The notes under the pieces: model-generated
Told to the model about the DNA's origin: nothing
Database searches by the model: none
What the model saw: the letters and a program-made list of their open reading frames with translations, nothing else
Translations under genes and position numbers: made by a program
Shown: positions 1,692 to 29,607 of the stretch, piece after piece
How positions within the stretch are numbered: position 1 is the first letter of the stretch
How the letters are laid out: every line of letters starts with the position of its first letter
Assembly: GCA_964362385.1 (NCBI GenBank)
Contig: CAYIEH010000002.1
Span: 1 to 36,541 of the forward strand
Source of the DNA: an uncultured Candidatus Saccharibacteria bacterium
GTDB lineage: Bacteria; Patescibacteriota; Minisyncoccia; UBA6257; UBA9933
Length of the DNA: 36,541 nucleotides
Reading direction: 5' to 3'

Positions 1692-1806
1692 ATATAAGTA
1701 TTCTATCATTAAGCATATTATCCGCAAACACTTCACATATAAACGAGTTATTGAAAATAATTAAAAGTTTTTCCGCCACAGGCAGAATTATTTGGGGCTA
1801 TTTTTT

Positions 1807-2424
1807 ATGATAAAAATCAAAGAATGCAATGAGCCATTGGTTGATATAAAAAAACTATGTCCCAATCTGGTCATTGATATTGGAAAGCAACGGATGAAGA
1901 AAGAAAAAACAGCATATTTACGAAAAACAGTGGCTGAAATGATTTGGCGTGCTAAAAATGAATTGCCAAAGGGAATGACGTTTATTATAGGCGACGCTTG
2001 GAGGCCTCAATATGTTCAAATAAAAATAATGAAATGGTTTATAAAACATTTTTCCAAAAAATATCCCAATTGGTCTGAAGCTAAGATTATTAAGGAAGTT
2101 GAAAAATATGTTGCTCCATCAGACGGTAAATATGCCTCTGGCCACATGACAGGTGGAGCTGTAGATTTAAGGCTATTAAAAAATGGCAAAAAAGTGCCGA
2201 TGAAAAGTTCAAAATTGACATATCAGGAAAACGCCGAATCATTTCAGCCTAAATTGCCAAAATATATTCAAAAAAACAGAGAAATCATGTTCACAGCACT
2301 GAAAAAAGTTGGCTTATCTAATTATCCAAAAGAATATTGGCATTGGTCTTATGGAGATATTTGGTGGGCAAAAAGAAATAAAAAGAGAACAGCTATTTAC
2401 GGAATTATAAAAGATATTTCTTAA
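1807..2424 (+). CDS. D-alanyl-D-alanine dipeptidase (VanX/DdpX-like, peptidase M15D)
   Basis: ORF 1792..2424. Motifs GDAWRP, SGHMTGGAVDL (SxHxxGxAxD zinc site) and EYWHWSYGD are present. The track start at 1792 is TTG; ATG at 1807 (MIKIKECNEPL) is preferred. Confidence 0.75.
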   Translation: MIKIKECNEPLVDIKKLCPNLVIDIGKQRMKKEKTAYLRKTVAEMIWRAKNELPKGMTFIIGDAWRPQYVQIKIMKWFIKHFSKKYPNWSEAKIIKEVEKYVAPSDGKYASGHMTGGAVDLRLLKNGKKVPMKSSKLTYQENAESFQPKLPKYIQKNREIMFTALKKVGLSNYPKEYWHWSYGDIWWAKRNKKRTAIYGIIKDIS

Positions 2425-2480
2425 AGCAACACTAAGTGAAATTCTCAAAAATCCACCCCCAAGGCGGGTTTTTAATTTGA

Positions 2481-2547
2481 CCCCGTAGTGAATTTTGGCT
2501 TTGGGCTTTGCCCCGCCTTTGGCGAATAGCCAAAATCTACTACGAGG
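2481..2547. repeat. Long imperfect GC-containing hairpin (20-nt arms, 17 Watson-Crick pairs plus 1 GU, 27-nt loop)
   Basis: Arm ccccgtagtgaattttggct (2481-2500) pairs with agccaaaatctactacgagg (2528-2547). The loop contains ccccgcctttggcg. The 5' arm resembles the 5' end of the adjacent tRNA-Arg (gtccccgtggtgaaacgg). Confidence 0.6.
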
Positions 2548-2591
2548 TTTGAAATATTCTCGGATAAATTATAAGCTAAAAGCGTAATCTT

Positions 2592-2663
2592 GTCCCCGTG
2601 GTGAAACGGATATCATAACAGGCTTCGAACCTGTTGTTGCGAGTTCGAATCTTGCCGGGGACG
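2592..2663 (+). tRNA. tRNA-Arg (anticodon TCG)
   Basis: Manual cloverleaf. Acceptor GTCCCCG/CGGGGAC, D stem GTGA/TCAT, anticodon arm ACAGG-CTTCGAA-CCTGT, T arm GCGAG-TTCGAAT-CTTGC, discriminator G. No encoded CCA. Confidence 0.8.
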
Positions 2664-2705
2664 CCTTGAATAATGCAATTAAATTGCTAAAATGAGAAAG
2701 TTTGC

Positions 2706-2963
2706 GCGCCCGTAGCCATGCCCCGTATACAGCTTTGCTGTTATACCGGGGTCAGTCGGTATTACTAGAACTCACTACCTAAAGCTCATTGTCCGCCCAT
2801 AGCTCAGTTGGTAGAGCAGTTGCCTTTTAAGCAAATGGTCCCAGGTTCGAATCCTGGTGGGCGGACAATGAGCTTTAGAATTAGTTCAGTTGATAGATCC
2901 GTCCGACAACTGGCGGACGGACTCTTAAGCAGATGGTCGAAGGTTCAAGTCCTCCCGGGCGTA
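2706..2963 (+). pseudogene. Broken tRNA-like gene (Lys-CUU-like remnant) interrupted by an insert of about 169 nt that contains tRNA-Lys(UUU)
   Basis: The 5' piece GCGCCCG-TAG (2706-2715) is complementary to the 3' acceptor strand CGGGCGT (2956-2962). The 3' part (2882-2963) runs TAG-TTC-AGTTGATA-GA, then a 24-nt hairpin (2898-2921), then loop remnant CTCTTAA, GCAGA and TGGTC, then T arm GAAGG-TTCAAGT-CCTCC. Its trailer ACATTAAA is the same as after the intact tRNA-Lys(CUU). No 5' anticodon-stem strand can be found, so I call it non-functional. Confidence 0.45.
2793..2865 (+). tRNA. tRNA-Lys (anticodon TTT)
   Basis: CCGCCCA-TA-GCTCAGTTGGTAGAGC-A-GTTGC-CTTTTAA-GCAAA-TGGTC-CCAGG-TTCGAAT-CCTGG-TGGGCGG-A. 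It is collinear with E. coli tRNA-Lys. C1-G72, discriminator A, no CCA. Confidence 0.85.
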
Positions 2964-3012
2964 CATTAAAAAACAATCAATAATCAAAAAATTAGGAATT
3001 TAAATCATATAT

Positions 3013-3281
3013 CCGCCCATAGCTCAGTTGGTAGAGCAGTTGCCTCCGCCAATTTTATCTGAAACGAAGTGAAATAATAAAATTGAGCGCCCCGCACCTT
3101 TTGAGTATAATTTTAATAGCCGCGCGTAGCTCAGTTGGCAGAGCAGGGGCCTCTTAAGCCCAAGGTCGCAGGTTCGAAGCCTGCCGCGCGGACATTAAAT
3201 AAAAGGTGCGGGGTTCTCGATTTTATAACCGCTCGCATATACTCGCGGATAAAATCGGAAGTTCGAATCCTGGTGGGCGGA
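3013..3281 (+). pseudogene. Split copy of tRNA-Lys(UUU): nt 1-33 and nt 53-73 are retained, and the middle 19 nt are replaced by a 215-nt insert carrying tRNA-Lys(CUU)
   Basis: 3013-3045 is identical to 2793-2825 and ends right after U33. 3261-3283 is identical to 2845-2867. The anticodon, 3' anticodon stem, variable loop and 5' T-stem strand are absent (GGAAG in place of CCAGG). Confidence 0.55.
3120..3192 (+). tRNA. tRNA-Lys (anticodon CTT)
   Basis: CCGCGCG-TA-GCTCAGTTGGCAGAGC-A-GGGGC-CTCTTAA-GCCCA-AGGTC-GCAGG-TTCGAAG-CCTGC-CGCGCGG-A. C1-G72, no CCA. Confidence 0.85.
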
Positions 3282-3341
3282 CACTTTTAAAAATCAGTTT
3301 TTAGTTGATTAGTTTTTAGCAAACAGTTAAATTTATAAAGT

Positions 3342-3412
3342 GCGGGTGTAGCACAGTGGCAGTGCTTCTCGTTGCCAACGAGAGGGCGAGGGTTCGATTC
3401 CCTTCACCCGCT
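3342..3412 (+). tRNA. tRNA-Gly (anticodon GCC)
   Basis: GCGGGTG-TA-GCAC-AGTGGC-AGTGC-T-TCTCG-TTGCCAA-CGAGA-GGGC-GAGGG-TTCGATT-CCCTT-CACCCGC-T. No CCA. Confidence 0.85.
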
Positions 3413-3424
3413 CTGGAGATAAAA

Positions 3425-18309: not shown

Positions 18310-21300
18310 TTAATTTTTCTTAACGCCGAGCCAGATTGAAATGTTATCAATTTTAGTTTCTGTTTCTGCGCCGAATTTATCCGTTCTTTTGAATTCAATG
18401 GATTTTGCTCCCACGCTTTTTTTAATTCCAGAAGTATATTTATCTATTAAATCTCGCATTCCACTTTCCGCTTCCACATATAAAACGATGGTGTCTTTCG
18501 GCTGGTATCCGGCTTGCTTTCGCAAATCCTGAATCATCCTGGTTAATTCTCTGATTTGGCCTTCATCTTTTAATTCTTGAGTGATTACGATGTCTAATTC
18601 AACATCGGTTGCAATATTTTTATCAAAAACAATTTCTTTCACATTCACTTCGTCTTTAACTAAATTCAATAATTCATTTTTATTTCTTAATTCATAATTC
18701 TTAATTCTTAATTCAAATAATGGTTGTCTCACTTTTATTCCCGCTTCCTGCCGTTTTGCCAAAGCTAATTCTGCGAATTTTCTCGCTTTTTTCATTTCTT
18801 CTATTAAAAGTTTTTCTTTTGCGGCTAATTTCTTTATCAGAGGATAATCTTCCAAATGAACGCTTTCTTTCTTGCTCTGCAACAACTTAAACAAGGCTTC
18901 GGAAATAAAAGGCGTAATCGGCGCTATGGCCTTGGAAAATTCGCTTAAAACAAAGTGGGTGGTCGCAATCGCTGATTTTTGGTCCGTACCGCTATTTTTA
19001 AATCGTTCTCGCGAACGCCTGATATACCATATGGACAAATCCTCCACAAAATCTCCTATCGGCTGGCTGGTTTTGTCCAATTCATATTCATTAATTGCCC
19101 CGCTAATCTGATTGATTGTTTCCTGCAACCGCGTCAAAATCCATTTATCCAACACATTTTTACTATTTGCTATTTGCCTTTTGCCGTTAGCTTTCTTGTC
19201 TGTGTATAGTCTATAAAAACTATAAGAATTCCAAAGGCGCAAAATCGTCTTTTTATAAACATCGTCCACGCCTTTTTCCAAAAAATTCAAACTTTCAGCG
19301 CGCACTGCCGGCGATGATAAAAGATAAAGCCGCAAAGCGTCCGCTCCATACCTGTTTACTAATTCCATAGGGTCGGGATAATTTTTGAGGCGCTTGCTCA
19401 TTTTTTGCCCGTCTTCAGCCAAAATAATTCCATTGGCAATCACGTTTTTATAAGCCGGCTTTCCGAATAGCGCAGAAGACAGCACTAAAAGCGTATAAAA
19501 CCACCCCCTTGTCTGATCAACTCCTTCTGCGATAAATTCCGCCGGAAAATTTTTTTCGAATTTCTTTTTATTTTCAAAAGGATAGTGAGACTGACCATAG
19601 GGCATTGAGCCTGATTCAAACCAGCAGTCAAAAACATCCGGCACTCTGCGCATTTCTCCTCCGCAAACGCATTTAAATTCAACCTCGTCTATAAACGGCC
19701 TGTGCAAATCAAGCTCGTAATTATCGTCATGCGGAACCGGGGTAAAATCAAGTTTTCTGACTTCGCCGGTTTTGATAAAATCGTTTTTCTTTCCTTTTAA
19801 TTCAACCGCTTTTTTTGGATTCGCGCCTTCTGCCGCGGCGAATAAATTCCATATCGGATATTCATGGCTTACTATTAAAATATTTTTGCCGGAATAATTT
19901 CTGTCTGTGTCGTACAAAAAATCGCCGACTCTCTTTTTAAGTTCGGTCAAATTCTCGCCCCCGGGCGGAGTTTTATAAAATTTTTCCTCAATAGAATTAA
20001 AGTACTTATGATAATCTCCGGTCCGTTTTCCTTCAAAAATTCCCACGTTAACTTCCATTAATCTGCGGTCTGGAATAACTTTTTCCCTGCTTAATCCGAT
20101 TTTTTCAGCCACTAAAAAAGCCGTTTGTTTCGTTCTCTCAAACTCGGAATAAAATATAAAATCTATATTTCTATCTTTTAATTTTTGCGCCGTTAATATT
20201 ATCTCTTTTCTGCCTTTGTCTGTTAAAGGATATTTATCGCTGGTTTCGATTTTAGAACTTACCCAATTGTCGCCGTTGCTTTTTGCCCAACCGTGGCGCA
20301 TTACAAAATATCTATTGACGGATTTTTCCGTGCTGTTTTTTATGTCTGCTATGGAACCGATAACTTTCAATTTATGACACTGGTCGCATTTCCAAACTGG
20401 AATCGGCGCGCCCCAAAAACGGCTTCTTGAAATTGACCAATCGCGCGCGTCTTTTATCCAATTGCCAAATCTGCCTTTTTGAAGATGCGGCGGTATCCAA
20501 TTGACCCTTTTATTATTTTCTATCAATCCGCCTTTGCCGTTTTTAATTTCAGTGACTTTCACAAACCACGAAGAGGTCGCGTAATTCAAAAGCGGGGTGT
20601 CGCAGCGCCAGCAATGCGGATATGAATGGTTCATTTTCTCTTTTTTGAAAAGCTTATTGTTATGAGCCAACCATTTTATTATTCCAATATCAGTTGCTGC
20701 CGGGTTATCCTTAGGCTTTGCCTGAAGACCGGCGAAATCCGACGCTTCTTTTTTAATACTGCCATCCATTGCAACGTGCTGAATAAACGGCAATTTATAC
20801 TTATTACCCAGTTGCATATCGTCTTCTCCGAACGCCGGAGCAATGTGAACTATTCCAGTTCCTTCTTCCCTATTCACAAAACCTGCCGGATAAATTTTCC
20901 ATCCATTCTCTCTATTTTTTAAGCCCTCGTCTTTGAAATAGTAATCAAATATCGGTCTATATTGTTTTCCAATGATTTCTTTAGCGCTTATGGTTTTAAT
21001 AATTTCATATTCTTTATCCAACATCTCAAGCCTGTTTTTTGCCAAGATAAACCTTCCTTCTCCCTGTTGCTGAAGATTTTTAAACTTTACAACCGCATTT
21101 TCAATATCCGGATTTACCGCCAATGCCACATTGCCCGGCAAAGTCCACGGAGTCGTAGTCCAAGCCAATAAATATGTCGTTGATTGTTTGTCGTTGGTCG
21201 TTGGTTCTATTAATTCCGCTTTCACATAAACCGAAATATCGTCAATTTCTTTATAATTTTGCGTGACCTCAAAGTTTGATAAGGTCGTTTCGCAGCGCGG

Positions 21301-21843
21301 GCAAATATGCATTGATTTATAACCCTCGTAAATCAATCCTTTGTCAAAAAGTTTTTTAAAAACCCAGAGAACGGATTCGGTATAATCCGCGTCCATGGTC
21401 TTATAATCATTTTCCATATCAACCCAACGCCCGATACGGGGAATTATCTTTTTCCAGTCCCCGGCAAAAGAAAGCACGCGGTCGCGCGCCGCTTTATTGA
21501 ATTTAGCCACTCCTATTTTAAAAATGTCTTTTTTGGTTTTAAGCCCAAGCTCTTCTTCAATTATGTTTTCTATCGGAAGACCGTGGCAGTCCCAACCCCA
21601 AACTCTTTCAACTTTCTTTCCTTTCATTATCTGGTATCTGGGAATTGCGTCTTTTATGATATTAGCCAAAATATGGCCATAATGCGGAAGACCAGTGGCA
21701 AAAGGAGGCCCGTCATAAAAAACATAGTCCCCTTTCGGAGCTTTCTTATTTACCGATTTTTCAAAAATTTTTTTCTCCTGCCAGAATTTAAGGACTTTTT
21801 CCTCAATTTCCTTGGGAATAAAGCTTTTTAAATCGTCAAACAT
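18310..21843 (-). CDS. ileS: Isoleucine--tRNA ligase (type-2-like) with an inserted histidine phosphatase domain
   Basis: HIGH motif (PHYGH), KMSKS motif (KMSKRL), editing-domain TTTPWTLPGN, and DVFDCWFESGSMPYGQ. At 1177 aa it is oversized. The RHG...SHE domain occupies about aa 503-708. Confidence 0.9.
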   Translation of the reverse strand: MFDDLKSFIPKEIEEKVLKFWQEKKIFEKSVNKKAPKGDYVFYDGPPFATGLPHYGHILANIIKDAIPRYQIMKGKKVERVWGWDCHGLPIENIIEEELGLKTKKDIFKIGVAKFNKAARDRVLSFAGDWKKIIPRIGRWVDMENDYKTMDADYTESVLWVFKKLFDKGLIYEGYKSMHICPRCETTLSNFEVTQNYKEIDDISVYVKAELIEPTTNDKQSTTYLLAWTTTPWTLPGNVALAVNPDIENAVVKFKNLQQQGEGRFILAKNRLEMLDKEYEIIKTISAKEIIGKQYRPIFDYYFKDEGLKNRENGWKIYPAGFVNREEGTGIVHIAPAFGEDDMQLGNKYKLPFIQHVAMDGSIKKEASDFAGLQAKPKDNPAATDIGIIKWLAHNNKLFKKEKMNHSYPHCWRCDTPLLNYATSSWFVKVTEIKNGKGGLIENNKRVNWIPPHLQKGRFGNWIKDARDWSISRSRFWGAPIPVWKCDQCHKLKVIGSIADIKNSTEKSVNRYFVMRHGWAKSNGDNWVSSKIETSDKYPLTDKGRKEIILTAQKLKDRNIDFIFYSEFERTKQTAFLVAEKIGLSREKVIPDRRLMEVNVGIFEGKRTGDYHKYFNSIEEKFYKTPPGGENLTELKKRVGDFLYDTDRNYSGKNILIVSHEYPIWNLFAAAEGANPKKAVELKGKKNDFIKTGEVRKLDFTPVPHDDNYELDLHRPFIDEVEFKCVCGGEMRRVPDVFDCWFESGSMPYGQSHYPFENKKKFEKNFPAEFIAEGVDQTRGWFYTLLVLSSALFGKPAYKNVIANGIILAEDGQKMSKRLKNYPDPMELVNRYGADALRLYLLSSPAVRAESLNFLEKGVDDVYKKTILRLWNSYSFYRLYTDKKANGKRQIANSKNVLDKWILTRLQETINQISGAINEYELDKTSQPIGDFVEDLSIWYIRRSRERFKNSGTDQKSAIATTHFVLSEFSKAIAPITPFISEALFKLLQSKKESVHLEDYPLIKKLAAKEKLLIEEMKKARKFAELALAKRQEAGIKVRQPLFELRIKNYELRNKNELLNLVKDEVNVKEIVFDKNIATDVELDIVITQELKDEGQIRELTRMIQDLRKQAGYQPKDTIVLYVEAESGMRDLIDKYTSGIKKSVGAKSIEFKRTDKFGAETETKIDNISIWLGVKKN
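18684..18718. repeat. Heptanucleotide tandem array (ttcttaa-like x5) inside the ileS 3' region
   Basis: Units are ttcttaa, ttcataa, ttcttaa, ttcttaa, ttcaaat. It encodes ELRIKNYELRNKN. Confidence 0.8.
19164..19184. repeat. Heptanucleotide tandem array (tatttgc x2 plus cttttgc) inside ileS
   Basis: Same unit family as 17121-17148. It encodes ANGKRQIANSK. Confidence 0.8.
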
Positions 21844-29505: not shown

Positions 29506-29607
29506 TTTATTGACTTATCCGCCATAGGCGGACCCGCCTTTGGCGGGCAACCAATTACCAAAAAACTTTCTTATTCACTTTCGGTTGCTTGGTTGCTCAT
29601 TAAATTT

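Follow-up and report, generated by a model that had tools for sequence, protein, structure and literature searches.

How do two intact tRNA-Lys genes come to lie inside the remains of two other tRNA genes? The question is posed by positions 2706-3283 of a 36,541-nucleotide (nt) stretch of DNA from an uncultured Candidatus Saccharibacteria bacterium (contig CAYIEH010000002.1); the whole stretch is referred to as the window, and L numbers mark the loci compared with it. An original prediction, made from the letters alone, saw each lysine tRNA nested in a wreck of the other isoacceptor type and proposed small cassettes bearing a tRNA that insert into tRNA genes or take their place, recombinase scars at attachment (att) sites, a composite transcript whose outer shell guides processing, or misassembly. 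The comparative data favor the first of these readings. We conclude that 2706-3283 is probably a DNA-level scar field of a tRNA-invading nuclease cassette rather than a nested functional RNA, and that the window most likely holds a decayed, nuclease-less copy of the module. In other contigs the module is conserved, with a GIY-YIG nuclease gene at its core and hairpins at its borders, and it turns over between close strains. The two inner genes are working tRNAs, and the outer pieces are dead.

The predicted coordinates and exact repeats were all present as listed. ARAGORN and Rfam agreed on exactly four intact tRNAs in the window (Arg-TCG, Lys-TTT, Lys-CTT and Gly-GCC). Within the 36.5-kb window, tRNA-like motifs were restricted to this 0.8-kb stretch, and TAGCTCAGTTGGTAGAGC matched four times in the window with ≤3 mismatches, against zero matches expected. 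The tRNA-Lys genes of the lineage (window 2793-2866 and 3120-3193; L092-L194) pair C1 with G72, have the acceptor CCGCCCA/TGGGCGG and encode ..ACA, not CCA; one acceptor and T arm carries a CTT or a TTT anticodon, depending on the genome. Unit 1, in which Lys(UUU) lies inside a pseudo-tRNA called X, reads as follows (ORF, open reading frame; L002 and L091 come from a close strain).

2666-2693, plus strand: promoter-like site TTGAAT-16-TAAAAT, with TG ahead of the -10, just 5' of X (consensus match only)
2706-2716, plus strand: X nt 1-11, GCGCCCG TA GC, 5' acceptor strand pairing with 2956-2962
2717-2751, strand undefined: hairpin H1, 35 nt, CATGCCCCGTATACAGC TTTG CTGTTATACCGGGG, between X nt 11 and 12
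2752-2761, plus strand: X nt 12-21, TCAGTCGGTA (read by eye)
about 17 nt after X nt 12-21, up to 2778, plus strand: stretch whose position equals that of the truncated GIY-YIG ORF tail of L002/L091
2779-2792, plus strand: left inverted arm CTAAAGCTCATTGT, which lengthens the Lys-TTT acceptor stem (inverted repeat of 21 nt, 100% complementary)
2793-2866, plus strand: intact tRNA-Lys(UUU), the inner gene (ARAGORN; Rfam tRNA, 72.7 bits)
2865-2878, plus strand: right inverted arm ACAATGAGCTTTAG, beginning at the discriminator base
2882-2897, plus strand: partial tRNA copy, nt 8-23, TAGTTCAGTTGATAGA
2898-2921, strand undefined: GC hairpin of 24 nt, TCCGTCCG ACAACTGG CGGACGGA, in place of tRNA nt 24-31
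2922-2965, plus strand: X nt 32-76, CUU type, with anticodon loop, T arm and CGGGCGT, then ACA

The insert of unit 1 measures 166 nt, and within it 2779-2792 pairs with 2865-2878 over 14 perfect bp so that Lys-TTT sits at the tip of the helix. The predicted 5' piece GCGCCCG-TAG is indeed present at 2706-2715, but the piece proved to be longer: it runs over nt 1-11, is interrupted by H1 and resumes with nt 12-21. The second TAG (2882-2884), which had been read as the repeat at which X resumes, is more likely the edge of the partial internal copy (nt 8-23) than a target-site duplication. The 3' part of X comprises CTCTTAAGCAGATGGTC, the T arm GAAGG/CCTCC with one mismatch, CGGGCGT and ACATTAAA (2922-2970). 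Its nt 32-76 are 78% identical to Lys-CTT, and a homologous piece is found in L151, where the right half of the unit is homologous, the inner Lys-TTT is identical and the arms differ by compensatory changes. Consensus matching found no promoter-like site belonging to Lys-TTT itself; the one at 2666-2693 probably drives all of unit 1, Lys-TTT included. From its position, we infer that the ~17-nt stretch before 2779 is a vestige of the truncated ORF tail, its sequence similarity not being significant.

Unit 2 places Lys(CUU) inside a copy of Lys(UUU).

3012-3045, plus strand: pseudo-tRNA-Lys(UUU) nt 1-33, exact copy of 2792-2825
3046-3119, plus strand: left half of the palindromic insert
3083-3111, plus strand: promoter-like site TTGAGC-17-TATAAT, 9 nt 5' of Lys-CTT (consensus match)
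3120-3193, plus strand: intact tRNA-Lys(CUU), the inner gene (ARAGORN; Rfam tRNA, 64.5 bits)
3194-3260, plus strand: right half of the palindromic insert, mostly an inverted copy of 3046-3119
3261-3283, plus strand: pseudo-tRNA-Lys(UUU) nt 53-76 plus CA, exact copy of 2845-2867

Here 3013-3045 repeats 2793-2825 (33 nt, 100%), with the T at -1 shared too, and 3261-3283 repeats 2845-2867 (23 nt, 100%). In the insert, 3077-3102 pairs with 3201-3226 (26 nt, 88%), and Lys-CTT stands at the tip of a nested palindrome. The right half ends in ..TCGGA, like half of the stem of a hairpin family described below, and the two termini together (TCCGCC... and ...TCGGA) resemble the two halves of that family; T3045 can alternatively be read as the first base of the TCCGCC terminus.

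Neither outer gene can yield a tRNA, because X lacks nt 24-31 (8 nt) and the UUU wreck lacks nt 34-52 (19 nt), where a 215-nt palindrome lies instead with Lys-CTT in its center. No Rfam tRNA match covered the outer pieces, and removal of the inserts restored a tRNA from neither X nor the UUU wreck, essential nucleotides being missing. The description of UUU inside a CUU-like wreck and CUU inside a UUU wreck is formally correct. Group I and group II intron readings were ruled out: the Rfam covariance models detected no ribozyme core, and no family of either type was listed at E up to 10 between 2400 and 3500. A match to the YrlA RNA (RF02553) at 2910-3055 was also rejected, as its 26.7 bits fall short of the gathering score (69) and there was no Ro gene, the TROVE (Ro) domain not being found in the window ORFs scanned; the weak match arises where the T arm of X is succeeded by the D arm of the following wreck.

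The fragments are not a unique scar, as the architecture recurs in many contigs. A metagenome scan with the 3' end of the C1-G72 tRNA-Lys as query returned 103 loci, mostly ordinary single tRNA-Lys genes. Orphan D-arm or T-loop pieces of tRNA-Lys were present in 27 of 104 sequences, the window counted, and we cataloged 55 distinct tRNA fragments from Lys, Asn, Arg, Cys, Leu and Tyr genes. Nested tRNA-in-tRNA loci were found in L104, in six contigs nearly identical to it and in L132/L138, where one gene shows three to four inserts; the outer gene of L132 keeps all its parts, with the anticodon stem broken (judged by eye). Many contigs of Patescibacteria share this architecture, and with other tRNAs it also occurs in one Bacteroidota genome and one Omnitrophica-type contig. 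L205 has two outer pieces that together form a cloverleaf in which a 6-bp hairpin replaces the anticodon arm. Four compensatory pair changes distinguish it from the inner tRNA-Pro (stems aligned by eye), and the outer gene therefore seems once to have been a separate functional tRNA.

Complete modules with an intact GIY-YIG ORF were identified in L163, L109 and L128 and, on tRNA-Asn, in L100. In the three lysine loci the order begins with tRNA-Lys nt 1-14 or 1-23, a 15-16-nt GC hairpin and nt 32-42, and ends with an intact GIY-YIG ORF of ~85 amino acids (aa), an intact tRNA-Lys with perfect 13-bp arms and a hairpin-bearing pseudo-tRNA. The four ORFs scanned (L163, L109, L100 and L108) scored 57-69 bits on Pfam PF01541, for which the cut-off is 22.6 bits, and ORFs in L128, L195, L197, L198 and L201 were also called GIY-YIG. 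The nuclease is a single bare catalytic domain, ~85 aa long, whose closest relatives of solved structure are UPF0213 proteins and SLX1, a structure-specific nuclease, and the ATG of its gene is often the tRNA's own ATG at about nt 44-46. The link between nuclease and tRNA held in a sample drawn regardless of context. All seven homologs of the L163 nuclease taken (41-76% identity) were followed on their own strand, after 1-132 nt, by an intact tRNA, and six of the seven had a matching tRNA 5' fragment and a GC hairpin ahead of the nuclease. This sample spans three phyla and includes Pseudotenacibaculum (Bacteroidota; tRNA-Leu) and an Omnitrophica-type contig (tRNA-Pro).

Some observations in these loci stand apart. 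In L207, of Paceibacterota type, a gene for a large serine recombinase (1780-2649, minus strand; Resolvase, Recombinase and Zn_ribbon_recom domains) lies directly 3' of a GIY-YIG - tRNA-Cys - tRNA-Leu array. In L105, L134, L150, L152, L165, L166, L169 and L173, an intact Arg, Cys, Leu, Lys or Tyr tRNA is followed 100-250 nt downstream by a direct copy of its own T-loop-to-3'-end segment, and an inverted T-loop copy often separates the two. These ORF-less segments look like very small inserts of a second type, placed at tRNA 3' ends. ARAGORN called Lys-bodied tRNAs as tRNA-Stop(tta) in L108, L114, L118, L124, L129, L131, L156, L158, L182 and L183. We rejected these as suppressors, the call probably being a register error: the anticodon loop is CTTTTAA and a G27-A43 mismatch shifts the register, so that they are most likely ordinary Lys(UUU) genes.

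The hairpins recur at a fixed place. The family hairpin, TCCGCC-N3-4-GGCGGA (15-16 nt), stands in place of tRNA nt 24-31, and the junction of nt 23, TCCGCC-loop-GGCGGA and nt 32 was found in 10 distinct contexts, including window 2895-2933. The hairpin at 2898-2921 is classed with this TCCGCC..GGCGGA family, and H1 belongs to a dispersed hairpin family. Stems covary (TTCGCC/GGCGAA, TCCGTC/GACGGA). Across 647 kb of fetched loci we counted 68 NCNGCC-loop-GGCNGN hairpins compared to 2.65 in shuffles, an excess of about 25-fold. L165 has H1 at the equivalent position, where C:G has become A:T by a compensatory change, and L163/L109 carry a relative of H1 within the D loop of a pseudo-tRNA-Arg. Moreover, a 20-nt hairpin in L138 is missing from L132. 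Far from the tRNA units, an intergenic segment of the window (29518-29547) holds tandem GC hairpins of the same family as in the tRNA wrecks, TCCGCCATAGGCGGA and CCCGCCTTTGGCGGG; these recur at L191 8270-8299, and similar ones are present in L165 and L157.

The intact tRNA of a module often has perfect inverted flanks of 11-15 bp. Arms of at least 11 bp were present in about 10 of 78 Lys-type contexts, and arms of at least 6 bp in none of 83 other tRNAs, indicating that arms belong to the module and not to tRNA-Lys generally. About 63 of the 78 distinct Lys-type contexts lacked arms of any kind. Flanks of the window type were absent from all of the roughly 48 tRNAs of unrelated fetched loci.

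Close strains carry different alleles. L001, a separate contig record, is 99.7% identical to the window up to 2844, spanning the junction 2716/2717 and the left side of Lys-TTT; it supports the predicted junction 2715/2716, and may derive from the same Hainich sampling series as the window. L002 (NCBI) and L091 (Logan) were assembled independently and match the window at 99% identity up to 2716 and at 100% from 2779, with identity stopping exactly after C2716. Between the equivalents of these positions their outer tRNA goes on: X nt 12-23 (TCAGTTGGTAGA), a hairpin (TCCGCCGGCTGGCGGA), nt 32-43 (CTTTTAAGCAAA) and then the ORF start MFYVYCVKNGNGKIYIGYTRDL. The MFYVYCVKNGNGKIYIGYTRDL peptide aligns with the N-terminal part of the GIY-YIG domain at E = 0.001, which falls short of the Pfam cut-off, and the ORF is truncated in both. 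From this difference we conclude that the locus is polymorphic within the species, the alternative allele pointing to a nuclease gene. Compared to L002, the window allele looks like the product of an H1 insertion and a deletion in which the left hairpin was lost together with most of the ORF remnant.

Two further pairs show presence/absence or allele-replacement polymorphism. L109 and L163 are 99.1% identical in the left flank, 67.7% in the segment from hairpin to hairpin and 98.3% in the right flank, and the diverged segment holds the nuclease gene and the intact tRNA; deletion between two hairpins would explain the shorter wreck of L163. L092 carries an uninterrupted Lys(CUU) and is 98.5% identical to L132 upstream. 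The two stay homologous as far as tRNA nt 24, exactly the point at which the L132 insert begins, and the outer gene of L132 resumes at nt 25 with nothing duplicated or lost. Other comparisons yielded little. Gene order around the VanX-like neighbor (1792-2424), compared across 80 GTDB loci, was not kept beyond ~98% identity and was uninformative on the tRNA region; an exact look-up of the MacA-like protein returned no record; scans of viral contigs for two junction patterns yielded nothing but tRNAs of unrelated phage origin; and a padded chimeric probe built from the 29-aa ORF remnant gave a single, uninformative protein match.

These observations are consistent with the following model. The tRNA genes of the lineage would carry a cassette made of a minimal GIY-YIG gene and short GC-rich hairpins. 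A complete module would consist of the promoter and 5' part of the resident tRNA, a hairpin, the nuclease ORF and a complete tRNA of the same amino-acid family, and would end with a partial tRNA copy, a second hairpin and the 3' part of the resident tRNA. The complete spare tRNA would keep the cell viable, making insertion harmless. The nuclease may cut cassette-free tRNA genes, the cassette then being copied in by recombinational repair in a homing-like manner or moved via its hairpin ends, and fold-back repair or collapse of palindromic cassettes could leave perfect inverted arms and solo hairpins. The recurrent breaks at nt 11/12 and 23/24, symmetric in the D stem, fit a structure-specific cut, although this is speculation. 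Unit 1 would be a Lys(UUU) cassette in the Lys(CUU)-like gene X, and unit 2 a palindromic Lys(CUU) cassette in a Lys(UUU) copy, both having lost the nuclease gene. In a viable order of events, the Lys(UUU) cassette would have killed a dispensable Lys(CUU) gene and the Lys(CUU) cassette would then have killed the redundant resident Lys(UUU).

Several points weigh against this model. A motif scan and Pfam searches of 30 ORFs found no GIY-YIG nuclease gene in the window, and Pfam found no recombinase, integrase, transposase or nuclease domain in those ORFs. The earlier statement that the window holds no recombinase was therefore accurate, but among the relatives L002/L091 carry the truncated GIY-YIG ORF and others intact ones. 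The fillers at 2716-2778 and 3046-3119 were not significantly similar to GIY-YIG genes (p about 0.06-0.56), and the link between the window and the nuclease is one of position and architecture; no ORF remnant is claimed on sequence. No homolog of the unit 2 insert was present in any fetched locus, and no contig gave independent coverage of the junctions 3045/3046 and 3260/3261. L092 and L132 differ wholly 3' of the tRNA, which means that the empty site is resolved on the 5' side only. In L195 and L110, a locus-specific upstream flank is duplicated along with the 5' fragment, more like a local tandem duplication than import of a cassette. Family hairpins also occur far from tRNAs, some of them terminator-like. 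The intact inner tRNA would keep the presumed target, so that its immunity is unaccounted for. Finally, homing, cleavage and transposition of the cassette are putative.

The alternative that survives best invokes local repair or replication accidents, with tRNA genes acting as fragile inverted-repeat sites and no dedicated mobile element. Fold-back priming, template switching and tandem duplication would generate the fragments, and GIY-YIG genes and REP-like hairpins would merely accumulate. The duplicated flanks of L110 and L195 speak for it, as do arms that are perfect inverted copies of whatever lies upstream, the occurrence of fragments for many tRNA species and the genome-wide dispersal of the family hairpins (68 versus 2.65 expected). 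However, accidents do not readily place a nuclease directly 5' of a tRNA in seven of seven blind samples from three phyla, with fragment and hairpin in six of them, or a hairpin at the same tRNA coordinate in 10 contexts. The diverged L109/L163 segment is bounded by hairpins, and the L205 outer gene differs from the inner tRNA, both of which count against accidents. We regard accidents as an unlikely explanation of the locus.

We also considered whether outer shell and arms are selected RNA structures, such as RNase III or RNase P stalks, that control maturation or dosage of the inner tRNA-Lys in a composite transcript. In favor of this, shuffled sequences fold much less well than either unit (z = -6.6 and -6.3), the outer 5' piece of unit 1 has a promoter-like site ahead of it, and H1 of L165 shows the compensatory change. 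The arms differ by locus and yet remain complementary, with CATTGT/ACAATG in the window and CGCTGT/ACAGCG in L151, and similarly in L163, L128, L123 and L198. By contrast, such arms are nearly always perfect Watson-Crick helices, as recent DNA palindromes would be, and the left arm of L109 is ~300 nt away, past a wreck and an ORF. The armless majority of Lys-type contexts (about 63 of 78) also counts against it. Shells differ between 99%-identical strains, and they lack either the anticodon stem or everything from the anticodon to the T stem. With shells polymorphic among near-identical strains and essential tRNA parts missing, the proposal that the outer shell guides processing is not supported, and we consider a functional composite transcript quite improbable.

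Breaks in the anticodon loop and the T loop fall at the classical att crossover sublocations, and scars of integration and excision by a tyrosine or serine integrase were accordingly among the predicted readings. The window breaks at U33 and in the T loop fit these sites, and 3261-3283 is the kind of 3' fragment left at attR. L105, L134, L150, L152, L165 and L169 show an intact tRNA, a 100-250-nt insert and a 3' fragment, and L207 has a serine recombinase gene beside its GIY-YIG-tRNA pair. However, there is no integrase in the window or beside most modules, and fragments of the 5' and 3' kinds are equally common. Integrative elements are far larger than these inserts, and integration normally restores the tRNA without splitting it. 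The att-scar reading fares poorly against the 5' fragments, the tiny inserts and the missing integrase, and we judge it highly improbable. An assembly artefact, in the form of a chimeric path through near-identical tRNA repeats, is very unlikely and close to negligible: L001, L002 and L091 do end within repeated tRNA segments, as expected where repeats disturb assembly, and 3045/3046 and 3260/3261 lie exactly at repeat borders, but whichever path is taken through both repeats, an orphan 5' fragment and an orphan 3' fragment are left over, the sequences of L001 and L002 continue past the left arm to an intact anticodon region, and the architecture is present in dozens of contigs assembled independently by unrelated projects with different assemblers.

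Having weighed these alternatives, we return to the tRNA-invading nuclease cassette and to what it would mean. It is possible, and we advance it tentatively, that the modules represent an undescribed family of tRNA-gene-invading cassettes in several phyla, with a UPF0213/SLX1-like nuclease, GC-hairpin ends and a spare whole or partial tRNA that offsets the damage. The family appears new and widespread. Literature searches turned up no account of bacterial tRNA-in-tRNA or GIY-YIG-tRNA modules, and nothing in them contradicted the original prediction that no such architecture had been described. If the model is correct, the cassettes would represent a third way for a selfish element to reside in an essential RNA gene, beside introns, which self-splice, and integrases, which restore the att site, and repeated invasion would produce Russian-doll tRNA-in-tRNA loci like that of the window. 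It would assign a role as selfish tRNA-gene invaders to very common, uncharacterized single-domain GIY-YIG (UPF0213-like) bacterial proteins and account for the partial tRNA genes and GC hairpins that litter tRNA neighborhoods in Patescibacteria. An ~85-aa nuclease, a 15-nt hairpin and a tRNA gene would make a testable system for a form of mobile-DNA compensation unlike that of introns, inteins and integrases. The model also bears on isoacceptor turnover in reduced genomes, as both lysine isoacceptors of the window appear to be cassette-borne replacements. In addition, tRNA fragments of this kind can mislead tRNA annotation and break assemblies.

The remaining tRNA genes of the window flank the two units.

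2592-2665: tRNA-Arg-TCG (ARAGORN, Rfam)
3342-3413: tRNA-Gly-GCC (ARAGORN, Rfam)

The segment 5' of tRNA-Arg (2443-2570) is palindromic, with arms at 2480-2500 and 2528-2548 around a CCCGCCTTTGG hairpin. It holds CCCCGTAGTGAA, an 11/12 match to nt 3-14 of the adjacent tRNA-Arg (p about 0.05), which is possibly another pseudo-tRNA fragment like the pseudo-Arg pieces 5' of tRNA-Arg in L163/L109; an Rfam match to Phe_leader in the same segment was weak and below threshold. Elsewhere, 18310-21843 (minus strand) encodes an 1177-aa class I aminoacyl-tRNA synthetase, IleRS-like (tRNA-synt_1, 459 bits, and Anticodon_1), with a histidine-phosphatase domain (PF00300, 96.5 bits) at residues 513-682, amid the catalytic domain.

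How does the putative cassette compare with known systems? One point of comparison is offered by REP elements with their RAYT transposases (REPtrons) and by MITE-like palindromes. As in these, short GC-rich palindromes are dispersed through an AT-rich genome well over chance, and a nuclease gene lies between two of them. The hairpin excess (68 versus 2.65), the extra hairpin of L138 and the presence of H1 in two tRNA contexts bear on a possible REP or MITE type of dispersal; the hairpins have no known transposase, and some copies are terminator-like. The module differs in that its enzyme is GIY-YIG rather than an HUH/Y1 transposase, and in that its hairpins are 15-16 nt long and occupy fixed coordinates in tRNA-derived sequence.

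Disrupted tRNA genes, including multiple-intron, split and permuted genes, are known from archaea and red algae (PMC4390854, PMC3978253). They share short structured inserts at non-canonical positions in the D arm, anticodon loop and T arm. However, these genes are mended at the RNA level by the bulge-helix-bulge (BHB) endonuclease and ligase and yield functional tRNAs, whereas the outer genes described here are bacterial and lack essential nucleotides or have broken stems. Integrative elements leave partial tRNA genes at att sites, a general phenomenon that has been reviewed with regard to prokaryotic annotation (PMC9897764). Like the module, they use tRNA hot spots, produce orphan fragments that break in the anticodon or T loop and supply tRNA sequence from the element, which leaves a functional gene in place. 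Unlike them, the module has no integrase, leaves 5' and internal fragments as well and has inserts of 60-400 nt; att-site elements restore the resident tRNA and the module splits and replaces it. In the window itself no integrase or recombinase domain was found in the ORFs scanned, the inserts measure 166 and 215 nt rather than kilobases, and 5' fragments are present.

A parallel in the same bacterial group comes from rRNA genes of the candidate phyla radiation (CPR), which carry insertions that are neither group I nor group II introns and some of which encode GIY-YIG proteins (PMC11270868). These are again non-intron GIY-YIG inserts in structural-RNA genes, at the tops or bases of stem-loops. 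The differences are that tRNA genes are the targets here, the interrupted gene is abandoned and a spare is supplied; that paper mentions tRNA 0 times. The phage T4 protein SegB is a free-standing GIY-YIG homing endonuclease encoded in a tRNA cluster (PMC2330249) that drives segmental amplification (PMC13096335). The module and SegB have several features in common: a GIY-YIG gene among tRNA genes, present or absent between close relatives, neighboring sequence that differs along with the nuclease gene, and nuclease-linked duplication in tRNA regions. The intact GIY-YIG ORF of a homing cassette is present in L163, L109, L100 and L108 and absent from the window. SegB and I-TevI carry a DNA-binding domain that the ~85-aa module protein does not have, and the module nuclease is cellular while SegB is phage-borne. 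Only the module, known to date from DNA sequence, has hairpin-bearing partial tRNAs and a whole spare tRNA. In none of these systems does a minimal nuclease occur together with both hairpin-bearing pseudo-tRNAs and a spare tRNA.

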